64,000 nt of DNA, from positions 145,390,001 to 145,454,000 of the forward strand of contig OZ024742.1 of NCBI GenBank assembly GCA_964016885.1. The letters are read 5' to 3'. A program made the position numbers and the translations under genes. Shown in pieces: positions 10,299 to 49,557 of the stretch (position 1 is its first letter; the number at the start of each line of letters is the position of its first letter). The stretch comes from Eledone cirrhosa. Lineage: Eukaryota. Under the pieces are notes generated by a model. That model was given only the letters and a program-made list of their open reading frames with translations, had not been told where the DNA came from and ran no database searches.

Positions 10299-10453
10299 CG
10301 GTAAATTGGCAGTATCGGTAGAGGGTTGGGTGCCATGCTTTGATGCATAGAGTTACGGCCCTTGCCATTCTGAGTTCAAATCCCGCCGAGGTTAACTTTG
10401 CCTTTCATCCTTACTGGGTAATTGCTGGCCTTGTGCCGAAAGTAGAAACAATT
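10296..10453 (+). mobile_element. tRNA-derived SINE (family 1)
   Basis: A-box-like ttggcagtatcgg and B-box gagttcaaatccc; shared body gccgaggttaactttgcctttcatcc...ggccttgtgcc..aagtagaaacaatt is seen many times in the window. Confidence 0.85.
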
Positions 10454-10461
10454 ATATATAT

Positions 10462-10499
<38 letters not shown>

Positions 10500-10503
<4 letters not shown>

Positions 10504-10807
10504 AAGAAAGAAGAGTAACATGGTTGGCTGTACAATAAGTGCTTTATTTAAAGTACTGACAATTGTTTCGTTGATCATGTGGTTCTAGAGTTCGCTAATC
10601 GCTTGATGTTGCGTTATTCGATCTCCAATACATTATTCATCTATGGTCAACATAGGTGGTCCATAGGTGAATAATGTATTGGAGATCGAATAACGCAACA
10701 TCAAGCGATTGGCGAACTCGAGACCCACATGATCAACGAAACAATTGTCAGCACTTTAAATAAAGCCCTTATTGTACAGCCAACCATGTTAATCTTCATT
10801 CTTTAAC
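10500..10807. repeat. Long hairpin/palindrome (147 bp arms, 14 nt loop) in (TA)n; inverted Penelope pseudo-LTR-like sequence
   Basis: Arms 10500-10646 and 10661-10807 are reverse complements with about eight mismatches. The right arm has GAAACAATTGTC followed by aataaa. Confidence 0.9.
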
Positions 10808-10843
<36 letters not shown>

Positions 10844-10944
10844 ATTATATATATATTATATATATATATATATTATATATATATATTATATATATATATT
10901 ATATATATATATTATATATATATATTATATATATATATTATATA

Positions 10945-10995
<51 letters not shown>

Positions 10996-11000
10996 ATATA

Positions 11001-11596
11001 TAGACCCACTCTAGACCCACATGATCAACGAAACTATAGCGGAGAACTAGCGGTGTATGAATGTAACAAGGAGACATGGTTTGTGTGTATAATATTTAAT
11101 CAACAATTTAACAGTATAGTTGACATGTCAATGAATAGACGAAAGAATTAGGCAAAGTTAGTAGTTACCGTTTTGATTGCCAGGCAAACGCAGGCTGGCA
11201 GAAGACGCCTGGCGAAGGCCAGGCGCCGGAAGGGCAAAATGAGAGAGTGAGAACTTAAAGTTGTTAGTTTTATAGGGTTCTGACCGGAAGTTACAGAAAG
11301 GGTTCTACTTCCCGTCTAGATGTTGTTAATCTATTGGGGTTGTGAGTCACAACAAGGGAGGCAACTGCCACAAAACAATTGTCAGTACTTTAAATAAAGC
11401 CCTTATTGTACAGCCAACCATGTTAATCTTCATTCTTTAACTATTATTACTCCAAGTATAACCTGCATAAAAATTACCGCGAACTCGCTGCATAACCATG
11501 GAAGCATCTTGTTGAGTCAAAAAAGGCCGTGCGTTAAAACTATCCACGACGCAGAGCACTCACAACCTCTAACTTATAACGATAACTTGTTATCCC

Positions 11597-11597
<1 letters not shown>
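11001..11597 (+). mobile_element. Second copy of the same pLTR-like sequence, interrupted by a solo LTR
   Basis: ctagacccacatgatcaacgaaac|insert|aattgtcagtactttaaataaagcccttattgtacagccaaccatgttaatcttcattctttaacta matches ~10720-10809; flanked by (TA)n. Confidence 0.8.
11035..11372 (-). mobile_element. Solo LTR related to the LTRs at 40817 and 42447
   Basis: 4 bp TSD AAAC (11031-11034 and 11373-11376); long near-identity (atgtaacaaggagacatgg...gaagggcaaa) to the LTR pair at 40.8/42.4 kb. Confidence 0.9.
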
Positions 11598-11627
<30 letters not shown>

Positions 11628-11916
11628 CAAATAACGAAACGAAATTAAATTTCGTTTCATTTGTAACTCACTTTTGTATGACTGACGCTTAAACAATTAA
11701 GTTAAAGATGTACATCCATATATGTATACTGAAATACTAGTATGTATATGAATACACACACGTATACATATGTAGATGTACCAAGTTTTTTCACTGGTCA
11801 CTTTACTGTGAGTGGCCAGCTATTCTGTATGTAAACACGCAGACAAACCGGTTTTTAGAGTCATACTGGTTTTTGAGGAAACACCTTTCCTCTATTCTCC
11901 AGAAAGCCAGACAAGG

Positions 11917-11961
11917 AATATTGAACTAGTTTCGTTGTTGTTACAACTCATCAGCAATATT
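11917..11961 (-). ncRNA. Type I hammerhead ribozyme, array unit 1
   Basis: Minus strand AATATTG-CTGATGA-GTTGT aaca ACAAC-GAAA-CTAG-TT-CAATATT: 7 bp stem I, full core, 5 bp stem II, palindromic stem III ACTAGT, GUU cleavage triplet. Confidence 0.88.
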
Positions 11962-12384
11962 TACCTATCTTCCGGCCTCTCTAGAGAATCGTAAAAGCAC
12001 ATATCGTTATATGCTTTTTCTATGAAAATTAGTAGTGGGCTGACTAATTTGCATAGAGTGTGAGTAAGTACCGGTTCAACGGAGACGATAAAAACAAATA
12101 ACGAAACGAAATTAAATTTCGTTTCATTTGTAACTCACTTTTGTATGACTGACGCTTAAACAATTAAGTTAAAGATGTACATCCATATATGTATACTGAA
12201 ATACTAGTATGTATATGAATACACACACGTATACATATGTAGATGTACCAAGTTTTTTCACTGGTCACTTTACTGTGAGTGGCCAGCTATTCTGTATGTA
12301 AACACACAGACAAACCGGTTTTTAGAGTCATACTGGTTTTTTGAGGAAACACCTTTCCTCTATTCTCCAGAAAGCCAGACAAGG

Positions 12385-12429
12385 AATATTGAACTAGTTT
12401 CGTTGTTGTTACAACTCATCAGCAATATT
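12385..12429 (-). ncRNA. Type I hammerhead ribozyme, array unit 2
   Basis: Identical to the unit 1 motif. Confidence 0.88.
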
Positions 12430-12851
12430 TACCTATCTTCCGGCCTCTCTAGAGAATCGTAAAAGCACATATCGTTATATGCTTTTTCTATGAAAATTAG
12501 TAGTGGGCTGACTAATTTGCATAGAGTGTGAGTAAGTACCGGTTCAACGGAGACGATAAAAACAAATAACGAAACGAAATTAAATTTCGTTTCATTTGTA
12601 ACTCACTTTTGTATGACTGACGCTTAAACAATTAAGTTAAAGATGTACATCCATATATGTATACTGAAATACTAGTATGTATATGAATACACACACGTAT
12701 ACATATGTAGATGTACCAAGTTTTTTCACTGGTCACTTTACTGTGAGTGGCCAGCTATTCTGTATGTAAACACACAGACAAACCGGTTTTTAGAGTCATA
12801 CTGGTTTTTGAGGAAACACCTTTCCTCTATTCTCCAGAAAGCCAGACAAGG

Positions 12852-12896
12852 AATATTGAACTAGTTTCGTTGTTGTTACAACTCATCAGCAATATT
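12852..12896 (-). ncRNA. Type I hammerhead ribozyme, array unit 3
   Basis: Identical to the unit 1 motif. Confidence 0.88.
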
Positions 12897-13318
12897 TACC
12901 TATCTTCCGGCCTCTCTAGAGAATCGTAAAAGCACATATCGTTATATGCTTTTTCTATGAAAATTAGTAGTGGGCTGACTAATTTGCATAGAGTGTGAGT
13001 AAGTACCGGTTCAACGGAGACGATAAAAACAAATAACGAAACGAAATTAAATTTCGTTTCATTTGTAACTCACTTTTGTATGACTGACGCTTAAACAATT
13101 AAGTTAAAGATGTACATCCATATATGTATACTGAAATACTAGTATGTATATGAATACACACACGTATACATATGTAGATGTACCAAGTTTTTTCACTGGT
13201 CACTTTACTGTGAGTGGCCAGCTATTCTGTATGTAAACACACAGACAAACCGGTTTTTAGAGTCATACTGGTTTTTGAGGAAACACCTTTCCTCTATTCT
13301 CCAGAAAGCCAGACAAGG

Positions 13319-13363
13319 AATATTGAACTAGTTTCGTTGTTGTTACAACTCATCAGCAATATT
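13319..13363 (-). ncRNA. Type I hammerhead ribozyme, array unit 4
   Basis: Identical to the unit 1 motif. Confidence 0.88.
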
Positions 13364-13785
13364 TACCTATCTTCCGGCCTCTCTAGAGAATCGTAAAAGC
13401 ACATATCGTTATATGCTTTTTCTATGAAAATTAGTAGTGGGCTGACTAATTTGCATAGAGTGTGAGTAAGTACCGGTTCAACGGAGACGATAAAAACAAA
13501 TAACGAAACGAAATTAAATTTCGTTTCATTTGTAACTCACTTTTGTATGACTGACGCTTAAACAATTAAGTTAAAGATGTACATCCATATATGTATACTG
13601 AAATACTAGTATGTATATGAATACACACACGTATACATATGTAGATGTACCAAGTTTTTTCACTGGTCACTTTACTGTGAGTGGCCAGTTATTCTGTATG
13701 TAAACACACAGACAAACCGGTTTTTAGAGTCATACTGGTTTTTGAGGAAACACCTTTCCTCTATTCTCCAGAAAGCCAGACAAGG

Positions 13786-13830
13786 AATATTGAACTAGTT
13801 TCGTTGTTGTTACAACTCATCAGCAATATT
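13786..13830 (-). ncRNA. Type I hammerhead ribozyme, array unit 5
   Basis: Identical to the unit 1 motif. Confidence 0.88.
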
Positions 13831-14252
13831 TACCTATCTTCCGGCCTCTCTAGAGAATCGTAAAAGCACATATCGTTATATGCTTTTTCTATGAAAATTA
13901 GTAGTGGGCTGACTAATTTGCATAGAGTGTGAGTAAGTACCGGTTCAACGGAGACGATAAAAACAAATAACGAAACGAAATTAAATTTCGTTTCATTTGT
14001 AACTCACTTTTGTATGACTGACGCTTAAACAATTAAGTTAAAGATGTACATCCATATATGTATACTGAAATACTAGTATGTATATGAATACACACACGTA
14101 TACATATGTAGATGTACCAAGTTTTTTCACTGGTCACTTTACTGTGAGTGGCCAGCTATTCTGTATGTAAACACACAGACAAACCGGTTTTTAGAGTCAT
14201 ACTGGTTTTTGAGGAAACACCTTTCCTCTATTCTCCAGAAAGCCAGACAAGG

Positions 14253-14297
14253 AATATTGAACTAGTTTCGTTGTTGTTACAACTCATCAGCAATATT
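14253..14297 (-). ncRNA. Type I hammerhead ribozyme, array unit 6
   Basis: Identical to the unit 1 motif. Confidence 0.88.
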
Positions 14298-14529
14298 TAC
14301 CTATCTTCCGGCCTCTCTAGAGAATCGTAAAAGCACATATCGTTATATGCTTTTTCTATGAAAATTAGTAGTGGGCTGACTAATTTGCATAGAGTGTGAG
14401 TAAGTACCGGTTCAACGGAGACGATAAAAACAAATAACGAAACGAAATTAAATTTCGTTTCATTTATATATATATATATATATAGGAACAAGTAAGACCC
14501 CGACGGCTGAGCTCAAGCCGTTTCGACGG

Positions 14530-14591
<62 letters not shown>

Positions 14592-18106: not shown

Positions 18107-18821
18107 GTTATCGAGTGTGGCCATTGCACGATATAATATTCAGTAATACACTGGGTAATTGCTGGCCTTGTGCCTAACGTAGAAACAATTATTAACAACT
18201 ATCAATTAACTATCGTGCAATGTCTGTGCGTGAAGATTTTTTTCAAAGTGAGGTTAGACTGTGCACTGAGCCAATCCCACTCTCTGAGCGACAGTAGCTA
18301 TACCCGAAAAGAAGAAAAGATCAACATCATCGGTAACTACCGAGCCGCAGGTTTTATATCGGAGTTATCCCAGCTTCCTGAGTTGCCTTCTCCTAGAGGA
18401 ATGCCCTGACAAAGGCTAGGGCTCCTTCACTCCCAGTGGTTTAACCGCACGATCGGGTATCCAGTCCGTTTATTTCTATGTCCCCGTACATATACATACA
18501 CAAGCATACATGTATATACATATTTACATAATACATATATATATACATACATATATACTCATGCATATATGTATACACATACATACATACATACATACAT
18601 ATATACACATATATACATACATACATATATACACATGCATACATGTATATACATGCATACATATATACATATACATATATATATATATATGTATATGTAG
18701 GAGGTGAGTTTTATTGTAGTACAATAAAGCAATGCAGATATCGGATAAGAAGCACTCTACAGTTTGTAGGACTGGAGTATACATAATATAAGATCAAAAG
18801 ATGGTTAAAGGAGTTCCATGT

Positions 18822-18890
18822 ATTTTATTATGCGCATTTCAAAAACAAACATCATCATGCAATAATATTTGTGTTTTCATCAGATAAAAC
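18822..18890 (-). ncRNA. Type I hammerhead ribozyme (mirror copy, left arm)
   Basis: Exact reverse complement of 19011-19079. Confidence 0.85.
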
Positions 18891-19010
18891 AGGAGAACAT
18901 GATATGAAGGCTAAAAAACACTTGTGGATAGTGCAGTTTTAAATCAATATATGTTGATTTAAAACTGCACTATCCACAAGTGTTTTTTAGCCTTCATATC
19001 ATGTTCTCCT

Positions 19011-19079
19011 GTTTTATCTGATGAAAACACAAATATTATTGCATGATGATGTTTGTTTTTGAAATGCGCATAATAAAAT
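19011..19079 (+). ncRNA. Type I hammerhead ribozyme (right arm of palindrome)
   Basis: GTTTTAT-CTGATGA-long imperfect stem II (aaacacaaatatt...atgtttgttttt)-GAAA-TGCGCA-TA-ATAAAAT; palindromic stem III ATGCGCAT, AUA triplet, overlapping AATAAA. Confidence 0.85.
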
Positions 19080-19180
19080 ACATGGAACTCCTTTAACCAT
19101 CTTTTGATCTTATATTATATATATGTATATATACATGTATGCATGTGCATATATATACACATGCATACATGTATATATAC

Positions 19181-19924: not shown

Positions 19925-20002
19925 ATACATACATACATACATACATACATACATACATACATACATACATACATACATACATACATACATACATACATAC
20001 AT

Positions 20003-26951: not shown

Positions 26952-26992
<41 letters not shown>

Positions 26993-26995
26993 TGT

Positions 26996-27069
<74 letters not shown>

Positions 27070-27146
27070 CCCTTATCGAGTCCTCTCTGGATTTTGGTGC
27101 GTATATTTATTATTACTACATGCATACAAACATACATACATACATA

Positions 27147-29469
27147 ATAAGTGAGGGTACCCTTGAGACTGTGATAGGAAAACTCCAAGATAAGAAAACA
27201 CCAGGAAGAGACATGATTGTCGGCTACTGGTACAAAAAACTGAAATTCTATCGGAGGTATCTTACTGACCTCTACCAACAAGTTCTTAAGGGAGATACAC
27301 TTATACCAGAATGGTTGACATTAGCACAAACATTACTGGTCCCCAAGAACAAAGACACCCACTTGACAAAAAACTACCGACCCATTGCATGCCACAACCT
27401 GATGTATAAGATGTATACAGCCTGGCTGAACCTATTCCTCCAAGATCACTGTGAAAATAATAACATCATCACAGATGAACAAGCAGCTGGAAAGAAAGGG
27501 GTTTGGGGATGTGCTGAACAACTCCTAATCAACAAAACTGCGATGTCGGAGGTGCGACAACTTAGGAGGAATATGGCTACAGTCTGGCTGGACTACAGGA
27601 AAGCTTTCGATTCTGTTCGCCACTCTTGGATGATAGAGGCTCTCCAACTTGCTAAAGTCCCAGACATTATTGTCAGAGCCATAGAAAGGCTATCTTCTTC
27701 TTGGGCTACTCTCCTAAGGTTAAAGACAGAGAGGGAGGACTCTATTTTCACTGATAAAATAAAATATTGCAAGGGTATATTTCAGGGGGACAGTCTCTCT
27801 GTGATATTATTCATCTTGTCATTAAACCCCTTGTCCTTTCTGCTCAAGAAATGTGAGGGATACATCATTGGCTCACAGGAGGACAGAAATACGAACCTAA
27901 CCCATAATTTCTTTGTGGACGATCTGAAACTCTATGCCAAGAACATGGATGGGATGAAGAAAAATCTTGACCTGGTTACAACGTTCTCAAAGGATATAGG
28001 AATGGAGTTTGGCCAAGATAAATGCTCATATATAACTCTAAAGTGGGGAAAAACAACAACCCAATCTAGCAACATTGTCATCAATGGCATAACTGTTTCA
28101 CCGATATCTGATGAGGACTGCTACAGATACCTGGGGATAGATGAGAACATATCCTATAATGGCATCTGTAATAAAGAACGCGTAACCAGGAAATACTACA
28201 CCCGATTAAGAAAGATCTGGTCATCGTAACTCTCTGCGCAAAACAAAACAGTGGCTCTCAATGTGTTTGCTGTGTCTGTCCTAACACCAACGTTTAGAAT
28301 ACTCAATTGGGCGATAGACGAAATCCGAGCAGTTGATGTTGGAACTCGAAAAATACTAAACAACACCGGAAACTTCCACATCAACAGTGACATAGACCGC
28401 CTTTACTTGAAACGTAAGCAGGGAGGAAAAAGCCTAACATCGGTCCAGACAACATTTGAATGTCGCATCATATCTCTCCGACAATATCTACGAACCTCGA
28501 AGCGTAGGAGCCCGTTTCTATCTGCATGAAACAGATAAGATCATGAGAGTTGGGAAGGAACTTCTCGAGAGATATTCCCTGTGTGATAATCAAAAACTCA
28601 CACCCAGGGATGTCGCTCAGCAGTATCGCAGTGACTCCATGGATGAAAAACTGCATGCTTATCAGCAAAAAAATCATGCATGGATATGTTGCCAGGAAGC
28701 TCCAGAGTGAAAGTAATATAGATAAGGAAAGTAGTCTATGGTGGACCAACAACCGCTATATTGGCTCCCACTTTGAAGGATACGCTTTTGCAATCCAAGA
28801 ACAGGAGATTAACACGAAATACCTGATTCACAAAAGAGATAGGGATGCAGGCAAAACACCTAAATGTGATAACAAGTGCAGACTCTGCAGAACTAACATC
28901 GAGGATATCACCCATGTCATCAGCAGCTGTCCAAAGATGTCATCGCGGTACTATCTACCTATGAGGCATGATGTAGTGGCCAAAACACTGTACAATGCAG
29001 TTCGTAAAAAAGATAGGCCCGATAATAAACACATTAAAAGCTACAGCAATGTGGAAGACATAATGTACATAATATGAAAGAGTACTGGTGGAATGTTCCA
29101 GTAAAAACCTCAATAAAATGCAGGCATAACAGACCAGATATTATGATATGGGACAGGGAGAAGAAAGCATGCACAGTAGTGGAAATTAGCTGCCCAGCAG
29201 ATGCCAATATAATATCAAAGATTAGCGAAAAGGAGAATATTTATGCAGAACTGATGAGAAATCTGCAGATACTCCACCCTGATTACACCTTCAGATTTAT
29301 GCCTGTGATTATTGGGGCACTGGGGTATGTTAGTAACTGCTTCAATACAAATCTTGAGAAGCTAGGCTTCACAGGAACAGAAAGAACACAATTAGTTAGG
29401 AAATTACAAGTACAATCCATTAATGGAACAGTAAAAATATGTAAAACATTCCAAAAATGTTGCATCTAA
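27147..29469 (+). pseudogene. Reverse transcriptase / zinc knuckle / restriction-like endonuclease ORF, disrupted
   Basis: In-frame stop at 28227-28229 and frameshifts near 28525, 28670 and 29075. Confidence 0.9.
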
Positions 29470-39844: not shown

Positions 39845-41148
39845 ATCTGCACGATAACCGTACCTTGTACATTCTTTAAAGTGTTTGCTGTCATAAAGTG
39901 TCGGGGGGACTTTTTATGTGTAAATGACATGACACTTCCTTCCCCGCTAAGTGTTGGTCACATGATTAAATGCATTCAGTAGAGTACAAGGACGATCCAT
40001 CTGGGAGGTCAGTAGCTAGCCTTGAGTACTGACTTGGTCTGATATAACTCACTATACCCCTGCTAACACGGAAAATGGACGTTAAATGATTATGATAATG
40101 ATGATGATTCCATGTGCATGAATACTGTAGTTGAGCATGTACATATGAGTGAGTGTGTACAAGTATGTATATTATCATGAAGTTCCTAGTTAATGGCAGC
40201 GCTGACCTAAAACCTATATACGTAGAGTAGTTCTATGTGTCAGATATCGCAACCCCCATCACTATCACCACCTGTATTACAACCACAACTCTTATCACCA
40301 CAATTACCACCTACTATAATCACAATTACACCTTTATCACTCGTGCACCACTACTATCACAACCACACCATCATCGCTACCACTACCACCATCTGACGAT
40401 CACACCAGCACTACCTCCACCACCGCAATCACCGCCACCGCAACTATCACTATCACTACCACCAAAACCATTCATGTCAGATGTAATCAATGAAAAACAT
40501 TGACGAAGTGGTGCTGTTCATAAGATTATTTGTATGTTATATTGATAAGATAATTAGTGTGCTATTGTGATAAGAAAATTGGATGTTATTGTAATACAAT
40601 AGAGAAGGAACATTCACCATGTCTCCTTAAAACAAATGGTTTTCAACCATTTGTTTTAACCTATGGACCTCTTGGATTCCTATTTTACTCACGTAGACCT
40701 CTATATCCATTCAAGGTTTAAAAAATCCTATTGCATTTGTATAATTAAACAAAACAGCGGTGGATTGGCAGCAGCGGTAGAGCGTCACACAACAAGCTTT
40801 GCGGCATAGTTATGGCTTAGCGAAAATACTGGGTTGTGTAAATGTAACAAGGAGACATGGTTTGTGTGTATAATATTTAATCAACAATTTAACAGTATAG
40901 TTGACATGTCAATGAATAAACGAAAGAATGAAGCAAAGTTAGTAGTTACCGTTTTGATTGCCAGGCAAACGCAGGCTGGCAGAAGACGCCTGGCGAAGGC
41001 CAGGCGCCGGAAGGGCAAATGAGAGAGAGGGAACTGAAAGTTCTTCGTTTTATAGGGTTCTGCCGGAAGTGATAAAAAGGGTTCTATCACCCCGACGGGA
41101 AGCAACTCCAACTACTTCCCGTCTAGAGAGCGTGACTCCTGCTACATA

Positions 41149-47800: not shown

Positions 47801-48504
47801 TTAGAGTAGGAGTAGGATGGCAATCTTCAGAAGGATTAATAATGTTGATACATACACTCACACACATCAGCCTATGTGATATAAATTCCTGTATTTTAAG
47901 AATTATTTTGTAATGAAATAATAAATATTATCAACGCATTGACACACACAAATAAAAACAAGACAAACACAAGGTGTCGCTTACTTTCTGCAAAAGCTAA
48001 ATTATCCGTTGCGTGCGAGGACAATCAGTAGCTTACTTAGTCCGGATGAGCTCCGTATCTCCATCACTCAAACTATCGGGGTCGATGTATGTGGAGATTG
48101 AAGTATCAATGTGGTAACCCCAACACCCAAGGGCGGTGGAAGCATTAATTCTCAATTGGGGGTGACAAATTTTGTCAATTTAGTTGTGGTGATTAGTTTA
48201 GCTCTTTGCACTTTAATATGGTGAGAAAACTTCGATATGCGATAAACATAACATGTGCATAAATTGTAGCGCATATCCAAATAGATGTGTGTTTTAGTAG
48301 TTTGGGGAGAAAAATATAATTATGGGGGGGGGGGGGGTGCATGATCCTACACCTACCCAACACCCACCCCCGCCCCGCTGGCCCTCCCCAGTTTAACCAC
48401 CCTTCATAAATATATATATATATATAATGAAGGAGTTGTGGTAAGGAACTAGATGGACCATAACGCACCAGAGTACTCAATAATTAGGGTAGTAGAGTGG
48501 GTAA

Positions 48505-49557
48505 TAGGAAAATGTATGACCCCGACTGCAGAGCTCAAGCCATTTCGACGGCTATTTCTGGACTAAATTAGAATTTTTAGCCTGGTAAATAAATAACCGA
48601 ACTTTTTAAGGGGTACTTCCTTATATGGGAAGATTGTAGTTGTCAAGAGGATTGGTCAAAATTTCTTGTAAACACAATTAAGTCTATCATGGCAGTGGGT
48701 GGAAGGTGGGGGTGGCTGAACTTGCCTGTAGAACAATGAGGGAGTGGGTGGAGCCGGTCAAGCGTTGAAAGTGAAATCTATACAGCAAATTCTAAGGATT
48801 GTGTATGAAACTAGGCCAGAGGAAGTAGGCGAAAAAGGATTCTGGAGAAAATAGAGAAGGGACGTTATAGAATAGGTAAATCAATTGAGATTAGGAGATA
48901 ATAAAAAAAAATTTTAAAAATAAGAGAAGAAAATATAAAAATATAAAATTGGATAGTAAGAAGTGATAAAAAAAACTGTAGAGTCTAAAACAGCTGCTAT
49001 ATTTAGTTGGTGTTGCGTTTTCGGCCAATGCTATAGAATAGGTTAATAATTTGAGAATAGAAGATACTAAATAAGAATTTTTGAAATTATAGAATTGGGT
49101 AGTAAAAAGTAATACAAAATCTCTGGGGTCTAACACAGCTGCTATAATTAGTTTGTATTGCGTTTTCGGCCAATGCTATCTTTAATTTACTGGGGTGGCG
49201 GTACTGAGGCTACAGAGGCCCGATGAGTTGCCTCGGGGTAGGCGAAAGGAGAAAAAGGAAGAGGAAGAAGATAGGGAGTGGAAGGAAGTGATGGGAGGAA
49301 ACAAAGGGAAGAAGAAAACAGAAAGGAAAAGAAAAGAGGTACATCTACCTATGTAAGCTGGGGTTTCCCCTATCTTATTCGGCAAGTGGGATGCTGCAGC
49401 CATTGTCTACCCACCCGGTTTACGAAGGACCAACTCCTAAACAAAAAAGACGAACTGGTAACTGCATGCAAACACCGATTGCGTAGGAATTACCTCGCCC
49501 TCAAACCCTCTAATGACCCGGGTGGGTAGACAATGGCTGCAGCATCCCACTTGCCGA
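48505..49557. mobile_element. Penelope-like remnant with inverted 3' segment
   Basis: Perfect 40 bp inverted repeat (49379-49418 / 49518-49557) around LLNKKDELVTACKH, resembling the PLE C-terminal LLNKRSEL..KCRH motif. Confidence 0.65.

Follow-up and report, generated by a model that had tools for sequence, protein, structure and literature searches.

A tandem array of predicted type I hammerhead ribozymes in Eledone cirrhosa and its relation to metazoan non-LTR retrozymes

Metazoan retrozymes and the Eledone array

As described in PMC4209133, most type I hammerhead ribozymes of metazoans have a helix III of 1-2 bp closed by a palindromic loop of 2-4 nt, act as dimers where they are repeated in tandem, and are believed to escape cleavage in monomer circles. 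For example, the axolotl motif HHR_Amex1 has one pair and a palindromic tetraloop at this position and cleaves much better as a dimer (PMC7229834, Cervera and de la Pena 2020). The same paper reports retrozyme circles in axolotl and their ligation by RtcB in vitro, and leaves open how such circles escape recutting. Retrozymes have been related to the pLTRs of Penelope elements in a preprint in which no product was obtained from eight of the nine Xenopus dimers (bioRxiv 10.64898/2026.07.22.740005), and Penelope-like elements are described as having (TA)n targets and tails of 30-40 bp (PMC8557442). Cleavage as a dimer together with protection of the circle is the published standard model for metazoan type I hammerheads, and the original prediction for the locus described here, which proposed both, restates that model and is not a new inference.

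The locus is an array at 11621..14465 on the minus strand of a 64-kb window, by which we mean the whole stretch of Eledone cirrhosa DNA that was analysed. Judged by its sequence, it very probably consists of type I hammerheads in a non-LTR retrozyme array, and it is a further member of a retrozyme class already described. Its period is 467, with 6.1 copies present as units of 467, 467, 467, 467, 468 and 467 bp plus 42 bp, and sequence differences among the six full units are confined to three columns, each affecting a single unit. Every unit carries one hammerhead, all six copies being identical and on the minus strand, so that covariation analysis is impossible. The copy examined most closely (copy 6) is the 3'-most in the transcript; the other five lie within 12362..14325 on the same strand, with C3 at 12422, 12889, 13356, 13823 and 14290 and predicted cuts after 14260, 13793, 13326, 12859 and 12392, and the monomers running between predicted sites would measure 467, 467, 467, 467 and 468 nt. 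The preprint recognizes a retrozyme by a hammerhead in at least two consecutive tandem units, and here a complete type I hammerhead is found in six of six. The unit is small and non-coding (34.9% GC, thus below 50%, with one ATG open reading frame of 30 aa), it has a pure head-to-tail layout without an LTR-type arrangement, and the array is the sole such locus in the window.

The two ends of the array are readable. A 42-nt terminal redundancy, comprising a 13-bp hairpin and a U-rich tract, stands at the 5' end of the minus strand (14424..14465) and recurs at the 3' end (11621..11662), where it adjoins (TA)n. The (TA)n run on the left (11597..11623) is the presumed target, and another lies on the right (14465..14484), with a second run beyond it at 14531-14588. 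Because both flanks are (TA)n, a target-site duplication, which in non-LTR retrozymes exceeds 4 bp when there is one, is unreadable. Between the two right-hand runs there is a short non-TA piece (14482-14533) that is 88% like 48504-48555 and could be a tail that some other insertion left behind.

These features are largely those of the metazoan non-LTR retrozymes described in PMC7229834, such as axolotl Rtz_331 with HHR_Amex1 and newt satellite 2: tandem non-coding units of less than 50% GC with one type I hammerhead each, no LTR/PBS/PPT layout, a self-paired circle fold, and a one-pair helix III with a palindromic tetraloop. The unit exceeds the 150-450 bp given there, although 467 nt falls within the 51-972 bp range of the preprint, and 450-bp tandem repeats with such motifs in Drosophila willistoni (Figure S5A of PMC4209133) are a precedent for its size. 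Also different are U17, a stem I of about 28 pairs, insertion into (TA)n, and the 42-nt terminal redundancy. Hammerheads in Penelope pLTRs (PMC4209133) share the palindromic 15.2-16.2 and loop 3 segment as well as a frequent U17, and their Adineta vaga (1) motif (Figures S3 and S5B) has the same C-UA-G helix III but C17. Unlike those motifs, the Eledone hammerhead has canonical helices (6-7 bp for stem I, 4 bp for stem II), lacks an extra base after A9 and retains loop 1, and the units form head-to-tail 467-mers with no RT/GIY-YIG open reading frame attached. With Penelope-like elements generally (PMC8557442) the array shares the (TA)n target, and their tail of 30-40 bp may be set beside the 42-nt hairpin at the array ends. 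It is the combination of canonical helices and U17, a long stem I and readable ends that is less usual here.

An autonomous Penelope-like element was rejected, there being no open reading frame for RT and GIY-YIG between pLTRs among the frames scanned. The window contains 125 stop-free frames of at least 90 aa, of which 74 were scanned, those mostly within simple repeats being left out; no Penelope RT/GIY-YIG frame was found among the 74, and none lies near the array. A tRNA-derived (SINE) head was likewise rejected, since ARAGORN found no tRNA in the window. No relatives of the unit were found in the phages or plasmids searched. An exact-pattern scan of prokaryotic genomes returned five loci, which we rejected because they match the unit over no more than the 12-14 nt of the pattern, have no Rfam hammerhead, and lie mostly inside long frames. 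Three of these five are homologous Pseudanabaena loci (L001:590-721, L002:115-326 and L005:516-649), 76-94% identical, with a core-like motif that lacks convincing stems and is not matched by any Rfam hammerhead; two are inside long frames.

The array represents a further young retrozyme family in a class that numbers thousands of copies across many animal genomes. Its six identical intact units and readable ends make it a clean test case for three disputed points, namely whether cleavage occurs in monomers or in dimers, how circles escape recutting, and whether such arrays are the product of rolling-circle reverse transcription, with Penelope machinery, or of DNA amplified locally.

Hammerhead anatomy and support beyond chance

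Positions within the hammerhead follow the standard numbering scheme. Copy 6 extends from arm to arm over 11894..11989 on the minus strand. Its catalytic core C3-A9 (CUGAUGA, 11948..11954) is intact and conforms to C3-U-G-A-N-G-A9, and the second core segment G12-A13-A14-A15.1 is GAAA (11933-11930), within a stretch (11924..11933) that also holds stem III and U17. Stem II and loop 2 occupy 11934..11947, with strands 11947-11944 and 11937-11934 forming 4 bp that include G10.1:C11.1 around a 6-nt loop (UAACAA) with a terminal A at 11938, which can be closed by a fifth U:A pair. The open end of the hammerhead is at stem I. The proximal 5' strand of this stem (AAUAUUG, 11955..11961, with G2.1 at 11955) forms seven unbroken pairs with 11923-11917; GG:CC and a middle helix follow, and finally a distal helix (11989-11978 with 11905-11894), so that the 3' arm as a whole covers 11894..11923. 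The distal helix has, as originally described, 12 bp with two G:U pairs, at 11983:11900 and 11979:11904 on the minus strand (pair probabilities 0.6-1.0). Its 5' strand (11978..11989) contains a 10-nt palindrome at 11987-11978; the strands of stem I also hold self-palindromic 6-mers at 11961-11956 and 11922-11917.

The palindromic stem III ACUAGU without a real loop is present at 11930-11925, as first reported, and it can be redrawn with equal validity as a single A15.1:U16.1 pair under a CUAG tetraloop. Since A14 and U17 are complementary, the palindrome is in fact 8 nt long (11931-11924). The motif therefore shows the 1-2 bp helix III and palindromic loop of dimer-type hammerheads. Cleavage had been placed after GUU between 11924 and 11923, a position that agrees with the assignment of U17 to 11924 and C1.1 to 11923 as the predicted scissile bond (11923..11924).

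The triplet GUU had been singled out. It is present and fits the NUH rule for hammerhead cleavage triplets (PMC3884650), and GUU is listed among cleavable triplets (PMC3138052, PMC9217987), but as a novelty it was rejected: in the 56 rows of Figure S3 of PMC4209133, counted by eye, 24 of these Penelope-type motifs have U at position 17, 25 have C, 6 have A and 1 has G. Decay of CpG as the source of U17 is not applicable to the Eledone motif because the next base is C, and in the published rows G comes next in 18 of 24 U17 motifs versus 12 of 25 C17 motifs (p 0.08).

The original prediction also had stem I continuing past a small bulge. The helix does continue; the bulge is probably loop 1, the tertiary docking loop. 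Its 5' side (GG, UA and A2.7, 11961..11965) stands opposite U1.7 and CC (11917-11915), and U1.7 at 11917 and the A that ends loop 2 at 11938, the partners of a Hoogsteen contact of natural hammerheads (PMC11875169), are both in place, which makes this site the likely meeting point of loops 1 and 2. The pair A2.7:U1.7 has a probability of only 0.63 and so is cheap to open, and +6.4 kcal/mol is needed to impose the loop-1 register of HH9 exactly.

That an AT-rich satellite full of hairpins merely resembles a hammerhead by chance might be suspected from the many foldbacks in the window and from the Rfam search, which gave no match at gathering level over the window, but this explanation is effectively refuted. 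A descriptor requiring the core, a stem I of at least 6 and a stem II of at least 4 matched six times in the window versus none in 300 windows obtained by dinucleotide shuffling of the whole window and searched on both strands. A second descriptor, set after a motif at 19018 (see below) had been seen and admitting that motif, matched in none of 600 shuffled windows. Rfam Hammerhead_HH9 (RF02275) aligns over its full length at all six copies with 37.7 bits and E 3.1e-7. The fold of the 115-nt motif has z = -4.05, none of 200 shuffles being as stable, and the same region reaches -35.0 kcal/mol on the minus strand versus -20.5 on the plus strand. The core, the stems and the minus-strand hammerhead architecture therefore stand as first proposed. 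Membership in HH9 itself was rejected: the Eledone motif shares with this family the core, the sizes of stems I and II, the UA in loop 1 and an A-rich loop 2, but five stem III/loop 3 positions are deleted and the score lies below the gathering threshold of 52. No other ribozyme and no plus-strand hammerhead were found in the unit, and its other Rfam matches are low-scoring hairpin families.

Single and double hammerheads

Double hammerheads in which two copies share a stem III are known from ASBVd and newt (Forster et al. 1988, as cited in PMC4209133 and PMC7761336). The Eledone motif could share this arrangement, and differs from those cases in being genome-encoded and of one polarity only. 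The anatomy agrees with the double-hammerhead reading given at the outset, and the energy models, which omit tertiary contacts, support it in part. A single active fold is uphill by +8.5 kcal/mol whether the motif is folded in isolation or as part of the circle, and by +7.6 to +11.3 kcal/mol across every context computed. In the inactive fold of both, C3-U4-G5 pair with G, A and U of loop 3 (p 0.92, 0.92 and 0.72, C3:G16.2 having 0.92). In an arm-trimmed dimer, by comparison, the unconstrained minimum is the swapped double form, with the palindromes paired over 8 nt, A14:U17 paired with p 0.35, and both cores active at +3.0 kcal/mol.

Across 11 folding windows, the double form with one core active is always cheaper than the single active form, by 0.7-9.5 kcal/mol, and with both cores active it is cheaper in 6, equal in 2 and dearer in 3. 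However, swapped stems beat local stems in only one of the 11, the arm-trimmed construct, the order being reversed in the 10 others. With native flanks, the margin of the double form with one core active falls to 0.7-1.7 kcal/mol in 7 of 11, because other hairpins can also swap between repeats (16-32 long-range pairs in the three folding windows examined). When spacer helices are fixed within their own unit, the double form lies at -1.8/+3.4 and the single form at +7.6/+10.2 under two dangle models, the double form thus being 6.8-9.4 kcal/mol cheaper. With its weak third stem, the ribozyme probably cleaves mainly when two copies pair.

That the tandem arrangement is functionally required, as had been suggested, is a stronger statement than these results support. 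Although the energies favour double over single, local stem I arms form first in a transcript growing from the 5' end of the array (p 0.94-0.95 at six of six lengths tested), and with an arm duplex of -31 kcal/mol strand exchange may be slow, and each copy may be held in its local fold by the long stem I. Two stem I 5' arms can also pair with each other at -16.6 kcal/mol, and this pairing might be either an aid to strand exchange or a competitor of it. The silent Xenopus dimers mentioned above likewise give it no support, nor do axolotl monomers that cut to 6% and 22% in 1 h (PMC7229834).

It is in this light that a different reading of the same retrozyme has to be weighed, in which each hammerhead cleaves mostly alone, if slowly, its core held well enough by the long stem I and a contact between loops 1 and 2, and the tandem layout is a by-product of rolling-circle copying. 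The axolotl monomers suit this reading, and newt and salamander monomers cut when given looped helix I extensions (PMC6155905); moreover, the local stem I is the first to form and very stable, U1.7 and the terminal loop-2 A are available for the contact described in PMC11875169, and it is tertiary contacts of this kind that the energy model leaves out. We nevertheless consider it unlikely, since the single active fold is uphill in all contexts computed, HHR_Amex1, the closest described motif, is far better as a dimer (PMC7229834), and a perfect palindrome would have no role in a monomer.

Within the preferred double form, the contribution of U17 can be explored by replacement in silico. With U, C or A at position 17, the double active fold costs 3.0, 2.4 and 1.4 kcal/mol, differing by at most 1.6, and the probability of C15.2:G16.2 across copies is 0.48, 0.07 and 0.26, respectively; U17 would thus help pairing rather than activation.

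Predicted circle fold of the unit and a possible replication route

The minus-strand unit folded as a circle reaches -150.8 kcal/mol (z -11.4, none of 60 shuffles as stable) with 67% of its nucleotides paired, and is thus highly self-paired, as in retrozymes; the plus-strand unit reaches -124.7 kcal/mol (z -5.8, again none of 60). In the minimum-energy circle the stem I arms close the molecule, and a second ACUAGU, in the spacer, lies in the 10-nt loop of another hairpin, where it was considered as a decoy. We counted 11 internal G:U pairs in the circle of the minus strand as against one A-C mismatch (binomial p 0.003), a test biased towards the minus strand because the fold was derived on that strand. 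The G:U excess could reflect selection at the RNA level or A-to-G change in an RNA phase.

The route that we favour would begin with read-through transcription of the minus strand, giving a multimeric RNA. One copy alone would be a poor ribozyme, because its stem III consists of one pair capped by a 4-nt loop and, in the models, C3-U4-G5 of its core are taken up in pairing with UAG of loop 3. Two copies might then swap stem I strands, bringing their ACUAGU palindromes together as a common stem III of 6 bp. This helix would be nucleated as an 8-bp duplex in which A14:U17 is also paired, a pair that has to open again afterwards; loop 2 would dock on loop 1 via U1.7, and both cores would be able to cut after GUU. 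In the released 467-nt monomer the long stem I would hold the two ends next to each other, and ligation, by analogy through a host RtcB-type ligase, would give a circle that should be slow to recut because it holds one hammerhead copy only. A Penelope-like RT/endonuclease targeting (TA)n would then travel round the circle about 6.1 times while copying it into a new site, with copying that starts and ends at the 42-nt hairpin. The anatomy is visible in the DNA and all later steps are inferred; we regard the whole chain as somewhat probable, and a recently inserted metazoan non-LTR retrozyme is the best explanation of the array.

The terminal hairpins and the circle fold also bear on an account in which the repeat is catalytically negligible. 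Here a unit derived from a Penelope pLTR would have been amplified at the DNA level by unequal crossover into a minisatellite, its ribozymes trapped in the local inactive fold. Such local amplification is modelled in the preprint, where most of the dimers stayed uncleaved, Penelope-type motifs are slow even as dimers (PMC4209133), and the predicted sequestration of the core, the A14:U17 pairing in the dimer and the restriction to a single locus in 64 kb all fit. The core is, however, intact in six of six copies, with helix sizes that are canonical rather than minimal; compact circular folding and a minus-strand G:U bias extend over the entire unit, beyond the ribozyme; and the array ends cleanly at one hairpin inside (TA)n. 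We judge this account improbable, slightly more so than cleavage by single copies.

A more specific version of the preferred retrozyme reading would join several of these features. The circle would be kept from recutting by pairing of the core CUG with the palindromic loop 3, together with a stem I of about 28 pairs that bars exchange between circles; the 8-nt palindrome completed by U17 would start dimer formation in the nascent multimer alone; the 42-nt end hairpins would be the recognition or priming site of a (TA)n-targeting Penelope RT; and the array would be the footprint of 6.1 rolling-circle rounds. Taken jointly these proposals are decidedly speculative and we hold them to be quite unlikely to be correct in full, but if they are, U17 would serve to promote dimerisation, and its frequent occurrence in dimer-type hammerheads could be explained in this way. 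Circle protection by loop-3/core pairing and a long arm, as suggested by a secondary-structure model, would address the point that PMC7229834 leaves open, and may already be in print.

Neighbouring sequences

A hint of Penelope-type activity in this genome comes from a second, unrelated hammerhead-like motif with a palindromic stem, located in a near-perfect foldback (18778-19123; 173-nt arms, 99%) flanked by TA/TACA microsatellite repeats. The motif is present on each arm, with cores at 19018 on the plus strand and 18883 on the minus strand. At 19018 it has an 8-bp stem I, a long stem II (-9.1 kcal/mol), an 8-nt palindromic stem III and an AUA site at 19072, and was matched in none of the 600 shuffles, the descriptor having been set after the motif was seen; it has no G10.1:C11.1, no Rfam hammerhead match and a fold z of -0.3. 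The foldback looks like an inverted Penelope pLTR remnant.

Other insertions embedded in (TA)n cluster around 10500-11444. A foldback in (TA)n at 10500-10807 has arms that are about 93-94% complementary, and a related copy at 11003-11444 is interrupted by a 254-bp repeat found also at 40835 and 42465. The foldback carries a half motif, GAAA followed by a palindrome and UC, with no CUGANGA upstream, and we read it as a MITE or a truncated Penelope-type insertion. Nearby, 10305-10455 is a dispersed SINE-like repeat with further copies near 19949, 43146, 45226 and 49939, in which ARAGORN found no tRNA and which may resemble cephalopod SINEs. The only clear match among the 74 frames scanned is a reverse transcriptase domain (RVT_1, E 1.5e-24) at 26955-28226 on the plus strand, with which a protein search gave 613 matches; a weak zf-RVT lies downstream, and the whole region (26955-29074, plus strand), which is split over several frames, is probably LINE-like.
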